Below are positions 2,914 through 7,254 of a stretch of DNA of 64,000 bases, in pieces. Every line of letters begins with the position of its first letter. Position 1 is the stretch's first letter. The DNA is from Candidatus Aenigmatarchaeota archaeon. Lineage in GTDB: Archaea; Aenigmatarchaeota; Aenigmatarchaeia; CG10238-14. Both the position numbers and the translations under genes were made by a program. The notes below the pieces were generated by a model that did no database searches, was not told the origin of the DNA, and saw nothing but the letters and a program-made list of their open reading frames with translations. The stretch is from NCBI GenBank assembly GCA_030018415.1, contig JASEGC010000001.1:407033-471032 (forward strand), in the 5' to 3' direction.

Positions 2914-5900
2914 ATGATAGATGTTTTTTTGGATGGTAGGTTTATCGGAACTATAGAAAAACCGGAAGAAATTATTCGAGTGATGAAAGAGAAGAGGAGA
3001 GAAGGGCAAATCTCAGACCAAGTCAACATTTCTTATTTAGAACATTTAGACCTAATTAGGATTCTTACTGATTCTGGACGAACTAGACGTCCTCTGATAG
3101 TGGTTGAGAACGGAAAGCCGAAATTAATGAAAGAGCATCTAGAAAAAATTAAACAAGGTAAGATGACATGGTATGATTTGATAAAGGAGGGTGTGATAGA
3201 GTATCTGGATGCTGAAGAAGAAGAGAACGCGTTCATCGCATTGAAACCAGAAGATTTAACAGAACAGCATACACACTTAGAGTTAGACCCCACCGTCATC
3301 TTAGGATTATCCACTTCTTTATTGCCATTTCCAGAGTTTGATCGTGGAGACAGGGTTAACTTCGGGTCGAAGATGATCGGTCAATCCATAGGCATATATT
3401 CGATAAATTTTCCGATAAGAGTGGATACTAAATCGAATATCTTGGTTTACCCACAATTACCGATCATTAAAACACACATGAATGAGGTGTTAAAGGAGGA
3501 GAACCACCCTTGTGGAGAGAATGTGGTTGTTGCGATAATGTCTTATGAAGGTTATAACATGGATGATGCTATCATTATGAACAAATCCTCTATTGAGAGA
3601 GGTCTATTCTGGTCTTACTTATTCAGGGCATATGAAGCAGAAAAAAAGAGATATATGGGTGGTCAAGAAGATGTGATAGGTATACCAGAACCTGGAGTGA
3701 GAGGATATTCAGGAGAAGATGCGTATAAACATTTACCAGAGGACGGAATAGTCAACCCAGAGACAGGAGTGAAAGAAGGTGAAGTTTTAATCGGAAAGGT
3801 ATCACCCTTGAGGTTTCTTGGAAGTTTGGATCAATTTATCACAGGATTAGAAAACATAAGAGAAACATCGGTAAAATTGAGACATGGTGAAGAGGGAATT
3901 GTCGACAGAGTTTTTATTACTGAAAGTAGTGATGGTAACAAACTGGTAAAAGTAATCGTGAGAGATTTAAAGAAACCTGAAGTGGGAGATAAGTTTGCGA
4001 GTAGACATGGACAAAAGGGTGTGATAGGTCTAATCGTCCCACAGGAAGATATACCATTCACAGAAGATGGTATAGTTCCTGATATAATATTCAATTCACA
4101 CGGTATCCCATCTAGAATGACTATAGGTCAATTACTGGAGATGTTAGCTGGAAAAGTCTCAGCCATAGAAGGTAAGAGGTTGAGTAGTCCTATCTTTCAT
4201 CCATTGCTGGAGTCAGAACTCAGGGAGACACTTGAAAAAAACGGGTTTAGGAATGATGGAAAAGAAACGATGTACAATGGTCAAACTGGAAAAAAATACA
4301 TCGGTCAGATATTCATTGGAAGTGCTTTCTATCAAAAATTGGATCATCTCGTTTCAAATAAAATTCACGCCAGATCCAGAGGGCCTGTTACACTCTTAAC
4401 AAAACAGCCCACTGAAGGAAAATCTAAAAAAGGTGGATTAAGATTGGGAGAGATGGAGAAGGATTGTCTGATCGCTCAAGGTACTTCTTTGGTCCTCAAA
4501 GAAAGGTTTGATTCAGATAAAACAAAAGTCCCAGTATGTAGAGATTGTGGGTTAGTTGCGATATTTGATAGGGTTAAGAACAGAAGATATTGTCCTGTGT
4601 GTGGAGGCTCTAAAATTGTGGATGTTGAGATGTCTTATGCGTTTAAATTGTTGACGGATGAGTTGAAAAGCATGTTGATTTATCCAAAGTTGATAGTTAA
4701 AGAAGATACGAATACGTTAGATAAAATAATCTTTGGAGTTTTAGATACCGAGACTATCCGAAAAATGTCTGCGGCTAAGATAAGCAAGACAGAACTTTAT
4801 GATCAAGAAGGTTATCCGACAGAAGGAGGGTTGATGGATCCCAGGCTTGGTGTGATAGACCCTGGTTTGAGGTGTAGAACTTGCGGGGGATCTGTCGGAG
4901 AATGTCAAGGACATTTTGGTCATCTTGAATTGACTAAGCCTATTGTTCATGTTAACTATGCAAAATTGATCTACAACCTTTTGAAGACTACTTGTTCTAA
5001 GTGTGGAAGAATCTTATTGGACCAGAGCGGTATAGAAAAATTTGCAGCTGGTAAAAAATCTATTAAAAAGTTAAAATCTCTTGTAAAATCTAAATGTCCT
5101 CATTGTGGAGAAACTCAAAAAAAGTTGAAGTTTATGAAGCCAACGACTTTCATCGAAGATGGGACAATATTGGATGTGATTCAAGTGAGAGAAAGATTGC
5201 AAAGAATTCCCGAGAGTGATTTAATCTATCTTGGGATGAAAGGGGTCAGACCGGAATCTTTGATCATAACTTTGTTGCCAATACCGCCCGTGACTGTTAG
5301 ACCTTCTATAACTCTAGAGACTGGTGAAAGATCTGAAGATGACTTAACACACAAGCTTGTGGATATAGTGAGGATAAACAAAAGGTTGGCAGAGAACATT
5401 GAGTTAGGTGCACCAGAATTTATAATTCAAGACTTGTGGGAATTAGTTCAATACCATGTTTCCACGTACATGAACAATGAAATATCTGGAGTTCCACCAG
5501 CCAGGCATAGATCTGGAAGGATATTGAAGACCCTCACACAAAGGTTGAAGACAAAAGAGGGGAGGTTTAGGCATAATTTAATAGGAAAAAGAGTCAATTA
5601 TTCTGCTAGAACAGTGATAAGTCCTGATCCTTTTATTGATATAAACGAAGTTGGTGTTCCTTTGTTGGTGGCAAAAGAATTGACAAAGTCTGTAGTTGTC
5701 AACGAAAAAAATATCGAAAAATTGAGGGATATGATCAGGCGGTATCCGGATTGGCCGACTGTGAATTATGTGATAAGACCAGATGGCAGGAAGAAAAAGG
5801 TCAACGAAGCGAATAAAGAAGAAATTTCAAAAGAAATAGAAGTTGGTTACATCGTCGAAAAGCAATTGGAAGATGGTGATTGGGCACTCTTCAACAGACA

Positions 5901-7254
5901 GCCTTCGCTGCACAGGATGAGTATGATGGGTCATAGAGTGAGAGTCATGCCTTATAAAACTTTCAGGCTAAATTTATTGGTCTGCCCACCTTACAATGCA
6001 GATTTTGACGGCGATGAGATGAACTTACACATTCCACAAGTTGAAGAGGCACAAACAGAAACAAAATTGCTGATGGACGTTCCAAACCATATAAGAAGTC
6101 CTAGGTTTAGTGGTCCTATAATAGGTTGCAGTAAAGATCACATCACATCCCTTTATTTATTGACTCATGGTAGCCGAGAATTTACGAAGAAAGAATTAGT
6201 AGAATTGATGAGAGTGTGTAATATTAATGTAGATATTCCGAACAAGAATAAATTCACTGGTAAAGAGATATTTAGCTTGTTCTTACCGAAAGATTTTAAC
6301 ATACAATACAAGGCAACATGTTGCATTGGTTGTAAAAAATGTTTAAAAAGAAAATGTCCATACGATGCTTATGTTTTCGTTAAGAATGGACAGCTCATAA
6401 CCGGTACGATAGATAAGAAGAGTATTTCTGCGTTCAGTGGAAAGATGTTAGATGAAATAGATAAAAAATATGGTCATGAGTACACGAGGAAGTTCTTGTT
6501 CGATATTACGAGGTTTGCTCTAAAATTCTTGACAAGATATGGTTTTTCAGTCTCGTTGGCTGATCATGATTTTGATGAAAAAATAAGGAGAAAAATAAGG
6601 AGAAAAATAGACGAAACTATAGAAGATGTGAGGAGAAAAATAGACGAAATAATTAGAGATTTTAAAAAGGGAAAGATAAAAACACTAGTTGGTAGAACTC
6701 CGAGGGAAAGTCTAGAAATCCTAATTCGAAGAAAATTGGCTGATTCTTTGAACAGGATAGCTGATTTTGTTGAAAAGAGTATTTCAGAAAACAACACGGT
6801 CATCATGGCAAGAAGTGGTGCAAGGGGGAGTATGGTTAACTTGGTTCAATGCGCTGCTTGTCTTGGGCAAGAGTTAATAAAGGGAGAGAGGATAAAAATA
6901 GGATTTTATAAGAGGACTTTCTCTCACTTTAAACGCGGAGATATCAGTCTAGAATCTAAAGGTTTTGTTAAGAATGGTTATAAACAAGGTTTGAATCCGT
7001 TTGAGTTTTTCTTCGATGCTATGAACAGTAGGGAAGGATTGATGGATAAATCGCTGAAAACCAGACACAGCGGATACTTGGAAAGAAGGCTCATCGGAGC
7101 ATTACAAGACTTGAAGATAGAGTATGATGGAACAGTAAGAGATAGTGGGAAAAGAATAATTCAATTCATGCCAGGAGAAGATGGTTTAGATCCATCAAAA
7201 ATACAAAAAGGTGGAATCGATGTCGGGAAAATTGCAGACAGAATCTTCAGATGA
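2914..7254 (+). CDS. rpoB1-rpoA1: in-frame fusion of RNA polymerase subunit B' (C-terminal half of B) and subunit A'
   Basis: Single 1446-aa ORF. Residues 1 to about 598 are B' ([26 protein letters not shown], Zn ribbon [24 protein letters not shown]). From about 4708 onward it is A' ([40 protein letters not shown]). No stop or start codon lies between ...YPKLIVKED and [21 protein letters not shown]. Confidence 0.9.

Follow-up and report, generated by a model that had tools for sequence, protein, structure and literature searches.

A single reading frame joins RNA polymerase subunits B' and A' in an archaeon of the Aenigmatarchaeota

In archaea, RNA polymerase (RNAP) subunit B (or its halves B'' and B') and subunit A' are, according to textbooks, encoded as separate polypeptides, and a covalent fusion of the two largest RNAP subunits has, to our knowledge, been described only in a few bacteria. 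The stretch of DNA analyzed here (64,000 nt of Candidatus Aenigmatarchaeota archaeon, assembly GCA_030018415.1, contig JASEGC010000001.1, positions 407,033 to 471,032 of the forward strand; hereafter, the window) contains a gene that unites B' and A' in one open reading frame (ORF). The ORF starts with ATG, and neither the ORF list nor the translation reveals any internal stop within its 1,446 codons (Table 1). Its product carries Pfam Rpb2 domains 4, 5, 6, and 7 (PF04566, PF04567, PF00562, and PF04560) at amino acids 4-595, followed by Rpb1 domains 1-5 at amino acids 601-1441. The NCBIfam model rpoB_arch (TIGR03670) matches amino acids 4-597 over model positions 1-597 of 599 with 883.3 bits (cut-off 811), and both A' models, TIGR02390 (1150 bits; cut-off 1042.55) and NF006336 (1172.8 bits; cut-off 819), cover amino acids 598-1444. 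Thus, one open ORF carries the full B' and then the full A' domain set, as proposed in a first-pass annotation of this DNA, which had predicted an in-frame B'-A' fusion of 1446 amino acids; its claim that B is split into B'' and B' also holds, as B'' is a separate upstream ORF with Rpb2 domains 1-3.

Both portions retain their catalytic and zinc-binding residues. The B' portion contains a conserved 12-residue motif and a C-terminal CxxC...CxxC zinc ribbon (C542, C545, C560, and C563), and the A' portion contains the zinc sites of the N-terminal clamp (C654, C657, C664, and H667) and the catalytic NADFDGD motif (amino acids 1028-1034). The 12-residue motif and these catalytic and zinc-binding residues are invariant across 12 fused orthologues, and the fused protein shares 72-89% identity with its orthologues. 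The B'/A' locus is represented by a single match in the genome (1.19 Mb, 16 contigs, 89% complete).

At the junction, the B' tail I589 Y P K L I V K596 E D598 is followed by T599 N600 T601 and the A' residues L602 D K604 I I F607. The DNA at 4699..4716 (AAA GAA GAT ACG AAT ACG) reads entirely as sense codons, with neither a stop nor an ATG, GTG, or TTG at the position where A' starts in relatives; the junction had been placed at 4705..4720 and said to lack a stop, a start, and a spacer, and the former is correct to within one codon and the latter accurate. Where relatives have unfused genes, B' ends with AAA GAG GAA (KEE); these codons also serve as the Shine-Dalgarno (SD) sequence of A' and are followed by a stop codon, 1-5 nt, and ATG. 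In genome G018, for instance, the genes are separate but in frame (KEE-TAG-AAA-ATG), and in G001 and G002, which belong to the same genus as the window, they are separate and frame-shifted (...AAAGAGGAA TAG/TGA AT ATG TTA...). Compared with G001 and G002, the window (AAAGAAGATACGAATACGTTA) has lost the stop, reads ACG instead of ATG and GAAG instead of GAGG, and has one base inserted. The linker codons sit at the columns of the former stop, the spacer, and the former A' ATG. From the conserved IYPK of B' to IxF of A', nearly all unfused genomes have 29-38 nt and fused ones 27-36 nt, mostly 33; hence, stop, spacer, and start have been turned into two or three sense codons, and the fusion adds almost nothing.

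The signals for initiating A' are also affected. An SD core, counted as GAGG, GGAG, or GGTG, is present at 24 of 25 separate junctions vs 6 of 26 fused ones, and in the window both this core and the ATG are gone. Such a loss of initiation signals is the signature expected for a long-standing translated fusion rather than for two genes. A scan for promoters and terminators at the junction, based on bacterial rather than archaeal consensus sequences, yielded nothing above shuffled expectation.

The fused gene lies within an RNAP operon. It begins 2 nt after the stop codon of rpoB'', and its 3' end is overlapped by the 5' end of rpoA'' over 35 nt (7220..7254) in another frame. This overlap recurs at loci L055 and L056, which give an identical call of rpoA'' at 378 amino acids, and in most relatives. 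The order rpoH-B''-B'A'-A''-L30e-NusA-S12-S7 corresponds to the canonical archaeal layout, and the catalytic core of RNAP in this genome is divided as B'' / B'-A' / A''. No paper with this partition was found, and one substitution or one indel separates it from the usual layout in its closest relatives. Elsewhere in the window, a tRNA-Leu(CAG) gene at 37903..37989 on the minus strand is the sole tRNA and the sole Rfam match.

Table 1. Features of the fused rpoB'-rpoA' gene and of the operon around it (positions in the window)
Feature	Position	Strand	Basis
rpoB'-rpoA' fused gene, 1,446 aa, ~165 kDa	2914..7254	+	single ORF; Pfam and NCBIfam architecture
B' (Rpo2C) portion, aa 1-598	2914..4707	+	TIGR03670
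Decayed Shine-Dalgarno position, AAAGAAGAT here vs AAAGAGGAA in separate-gene relatives	4699..4707	+	junction DNA comparison
Linker codons ACG AAT ACG (T599 N600 T601)	4708..4716	+	column-by-column comparison with G018 and G001/G002
A' (Rpo1N) portion, aa 602-1446	4717..7254	+	TIGR02390, NF006336
rpoH (Rpo5), first gene of the RNA polymerase operon	1180..1425	+	Pfam RNA_pol_Rpb5_C, E = 1.9e-29
rpoB'' (Rpo2N), N-terminal half of split B, 494 aa	1427..2911	+	Pfam Rpb2 domains 1, 2, 3
rpoA'' (Rpo1C), 378 aa, ATG at 7220	7220..8356	+	Pfam Rpb1 domain 5
L30e	8353..8628	+	Pfam
NusA-like KH protein	8625..9041	+	Pfam
S12	9038..9466	+	Pfam
S7	9467..10069	+	Pfam

Fused genes of this kind are found in many other members of the phylum. 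A protein search returned more than 100 clusters that combine the Rpb2 and Rpb1 domain sets, and the sources named by NCBI are almost always metagenome-assembled genomes (MAGs) of Candidatus Aenigmatarchaeota. The fused clusters fall into two length classes: approx. 1,420-1,460 amino acids (B'-A') and approx. 1,910-1,930 amino acids (unsplit B fused to A'). Among 38 species representatives of the window's order, whose junctions were read directly, 21 are fused and 17 separate. In a sample of 201 representatives of the phylum, 38, distributed across eight families, show an uninterrupted match over the junction. In another 26 (e.g., G018, G041, G085, and G098), B' and A' share a frame and are parted only by one or two stop codons; a single substitution separates these genomes from fusion. 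In the remainder of the sample, B' and A' lie in different frames or further apart.

The two states are intermingled in the phylogeny. In a maximum-likelihood tree of 52 representatives, built from B'', B', A', and A'' with the junction columns removed, the state changes 11 times, and at least 10 of these changes are forced by branches with at least 95% support. In the tree of species representatives, the window alone is fused and its two sisters from the same genus are unfused, which suggests a recent gain in the window's lineage; when metagenome proteins are added (a set biased toward fusions by the length filter of the search), the clade around the window is mostly fused. The nearest proteins in a collection of 5.8 billion, P0004 (89% identical; JGI metagenome 3300032020) and P0005 (86%), are both fused. 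They come from other metagenomes, and their linkers (KEDINALDK and NEETNTLNK, respectively) are equal in length to that of the window but vary in their residues. The window, P0004, and P0005 form a clade with 99% support, sister to the unfused G001 and G002; thus, the fusion has been inherited through at least three species-level lineages. The first-pass annotation had proposed a comparison with orthologous operons of related genomes, and its outcome is as follows: the nearest species, represented by P0004 and P0005, are fused likewise, and G001 and G002 are separate by several changes. The unfused G001, G002, and G008 have one and the same 32-nt arrangement at the junction, which speaks tentatively for separate genes as the ancestral state and for repeated gains of the fusion. 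Taken together, the sampled junctions indicate that the fusion extends beyond this genome: it is widespread and evolutionarily labile in Aenigmatarchaeota, a DPANN phylum.

Whether B is split into B'' and B' also varies across the phylum. In the window's order, B is split in every one of the 38 genomes (L001-L040), and it is unsplit in most of the sampled genomes of other orders (L041-L052), with G131, G085, and G098 as exceptions. Some fused lineages (L003 of genome G017, L004, L005, and L007) retain an in-frame ATG right after the B' tail. G017 also retains GAGG (GAGGAAATGAAC), and in such lineages synthesis of a separate A' by internal initiation from the fused mRNA is conceivable. In G020 (L029/L030, contigs C12 and C73), B' ends at the end of one contig and A' begins near the end of the other; this assembly break, located exactly at the junction, may reflect strain heterogeneity at the site.

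Two candidate fusions with long linkers, an open frame of 2,066 amino acids in G067 and one of 2,026 in G122, were rejected as really separate genes that share a frame. In G067 (L054, G067:C31:2325-10027), rpoB and rpoA' are parted by an A-rich non-coding spacer of approx. 270 nt, compared with 1-5 nt in relatives. In G122 (L053, G122:C2:708500-716255), a 107-codon ORF (MFNADIYHWNEEIPEG...) that has no Pfam match lies between unsplit rpoB and rpoA'.

The join is compatible with the structure of the RNAP clamp. In the engineered Pyrococcus furiosus rClamp (PDB 3QQC, chain A), residues 1053-1115 of B are connected by a short Gly/Ala/Ser linker to residues 3-318 of A' (PMC3094117); this protein is soluble, has been crystallized, and binds Spt4/5 stoichiometrically (Martinez-Rucobo et al. 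2011, PMC3094117). The rClamp aligns to amino acids 536-699 of the window protein, across the junction and without a gap at the join. An AlphaFold2 model of amino acids 520-930, calculated with a 40-sequence alignment, places a strand (KLIV), a six-residue turn (KEDTNT), and another strand (LDKII) at the junction, with predicted local distance difference test (pLDDT) values of 74-81. Its best match in the PDB is 3qqc_A (E = 1.5e-29, TMq 0.69, TMt 0.74, root-mean-square deviation 3.9 Å, 366 columns), and the next matches are archaeal Rpo1N chains. The fusion had earlier been called structurally plausible, and that judgment is upheld by an engineered B-A' clamp that folds, binds Spt4/5, and aligns gaplessly over the junction.

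The ORF is open, the gene is the sole copy, the arrangement is conserved in the nearest species and recurs in the phylum, and it is structurally compatible. The locus is, with high probability, a genuine B'-A' gene fusion that encodes one chain of approx. 165 kDa, composed of the C-terminal half of B and the whole of A', in an otherwise ordinary archaeal RNAP, and we infer that it is this fused chain that works in the cell. Several points weigh against this conclusion. The two other species representatives of the window's GTDB genus keep B' and A' separate; thus, the fused state is not fixed at the genus level. The AlphaFold2 model is moderate overall (mean pLDDT 66.9). Moreover, the NCBI record of this genome lists only an 860-amino-acid A' that starts at M587; that is, the depositor's pipeline missed the fusion. 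On the supporting side, the sequence was recovered a second time: run SRR23186779, as assembled in Logan, contains a 16.8-kb contig that encodes the exact 1,446-amino-acid protein, and 8,341 of the 8,341 compared bases are identical to the window. A second assembler therefore yields the same sequence, although possibly from the very reads that gave the genome.

A sequencing or assembly artefact, in which a miscalled base or an indel merges two really separate genes, would account for the contrast with G001 and G002 of the same genus, which carry separate, frame-shifted genes. Nevertheless, such an error is extremely improbable. A return to the layout of the relatives would need the stop restored, ACG changed to ATG, GAAG changed to GAGG, and 1 nt removed; in addition, the Logan assembly is identical, P0004 and P0005 from other samples are fused with a linker of equal length, and dozens of independent MAGs are fused as well. 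There is next to no chance that the gene is decaying into a pseudogene or is made redundant by a polymerase encoded elsewhere. At 89% completeness, the genome leaves room for a second locus, yet a single match was found in it, the gene is free of frameshifts and stops, none of its catalytic motifs has been lost, it sits in a canonical operon, and identity to orthologues remains at 72-89%.

A different question is whether the fused ORF nevertheless gives rise to separate B' and A' chains, either by internal initiation (e.g., at M587 or M619) or by proteolysis of the linker. The NCBI pipeline called an 860-amino-acid product from M587; some other fused lineages (e.g., G017, GAGGAAATG) still have, within the ORF, an ATG and a core resembling an SD sequence; and the residues of the linker differ between species. 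The called product, P0124, equals the C-terminal part of the fused ORF (4672..7254), and its start lies inside the B' tail, MLIYPK. No SD-like sequence precedes M587 (upstream TGACGGATGAGTTGAAAAGC), and the call looks like a pipeline forcing a gene model of A' size. Because the NCBI entry covers only the C-terminal part, the public record seems to truncate or hide the fusion. Separate products are very improbable: the former start is ACG, the SD core has been lost, nothing resembling an SD sequence stands before M587, and, without a stop codon, a ribosome that starts at the ATG of B' must make the full fusion. Furthermore, the linker of approx. six residues, modelled as a tight turn between paired strands, would be a poor target for proteases.

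The fusion probably originated when a small indel brought the frames of rpoB' and rpoA' into register and the stop was lost. The stop codon of rpoB', the spacer of a few bases, and the start codon of rpoA' would have become the Thr-Asn-Thr sense codons, after which the ribosome-binding site (GAGG to GAAG) and start (ATG to ACG), no longer of use, would have decayed. The resulting single B'-A' chain would supply both halves of the clamp; B'', A'', and the small subunits would join it to form a normal RNAP, with a turn of approx. six residues (KEDTNT) bridging the B' and A' strands. Tolerance of the join probably stems from the clamp, where the C-terminal B' strand and the N-terminal A' strand lie next to each other.

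We infer that the fusion is nearly neutral or mildly beneficial (through a fixed 1:1 stoichiometry and assembly) and not a functional innovation. It is also conceivable, but rather unlikely, that the B'-A' join has been selected repeatedly in Aenigmatarchaeota because tethering the two clamp halves would secure a 1:1 ratio and let the catalytic core assemble co-translationally where genomes are tiny and assembly helpers few. If this were the case, the switches observed among 52 species (at least 10) and the loss of the internal ribosome-binding site would reflect selection, and the phylum would constitute a natural experiment in the partitioning of multisubunit polymerases into polypeptides.

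The fusion matters in several respects. It offers structural biologists a natural single-chain clamp and provides a case in which RNAP assembly and subunit stoichiometry can be tested. It also shows that, even in an essential enzyme conserved throughout life, gene boundaries can switch repeatedly inside a single phylum. On the practical side, annotation pipelines mislabel such fusions (here, only the 860-amino-acid A' is recorded; elsewhere, fused proteins are named "subunit A'"), and phylogenomic marker pipelines that expect separate rpoB and rpoA' will mishandle fused genes.

Among known systems, the closest parallel is bacterial. A natural rpoB-rpoC (β-β') fusion in Helicobacteraceae and Wolbachia is documented in PMC7483510 (citing Zakharova et al. 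1999, J Bacteriol 181:3857, and Lane & Darst 2010), so that the analogy with Helicobacter and Wolbachia drawn in the first-pass annotation holds. As in those bacteria, the C-terminus of the second-largest subunit is joined in frame to the N-terminus of the largest, two neighboring genes of one operon have lost the stop and start that parted them, and the fused gene is the sole, essential copy. In contrast to the bacterial fusions, the window proteins are archaeal-type B and A', and the fused and separate states flip repeatedly among close relatives of the window. The models of the bacterial fusions match only the shared catalytic core and score far below their cut-offs (NF007172, Helicobacter type, 356.3 bits vs 5372; NF011417, Wolbachia type, 341.7 vs 4632); thus, the window protein lies outside the bacterial fused β/β' families. 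Moreover, B and A are both split here, and the product therefore combines the C-terminal half of B, i.e., B', with the N-terminal part of A, i.e., A'. We know of no bacterium in which this partition is seen.

Full-text literature searches on RNAP subunit fusions in Aenigmatarchaeota and DPANN turned up no account of a B-A' or B'-A' fusion in archaea, in line with the earlier remark that no described archaeal case was known. Da Cunha et al. 2017 (PMC5484517), a phylogeny paper centered on RNAP, treat only events that split or fuse A' and A'', among them a secondary fusion of the two in Pacearchaeota; PMC6355029 and PMC13473441 have no bearing on the question. The window fusion is the archaeal counterpart of a known bacterial event and, as far as searched, undescribed. 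Given the bacterial precedent and the adjacent termini, it is conceptually unsurprising.

The rClamp of 3QQC resembles the window protein in that the C-terminus of B is connected to the N-terminus of A' through a very short linker; however, it is a laboratory construct restricted to the clamp domain, with an A'' fragment appended, whereas the window carries a natural full-length gene. The canonical split-B operon rpoH-B''-B'-A'-A'' occurs in methanogens and halophiles. The window shares with it, and with G001 and G002, the gene order, the B''/B' split, the overlapping A'/A'' split, and the downstream genes L30e-NusA-S12-S7, but B' and A' form one ORF here and are separate there (a stop, 1-5 nt, and ATG, with the SD sequence in the last codons of B'). 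Finally, the B-A' fusions of approx. 1,910-1,935 amino acids in other families of Aenigmatarchaeota (e.g., G094, G051, G138, and G146; P0086-P0123) have the junction at the same position as the window fusion and a linker of similar length, 9-12 codons; they differ in that their B is unsplit, and the tree places unfused lineages between them and the window's clade.

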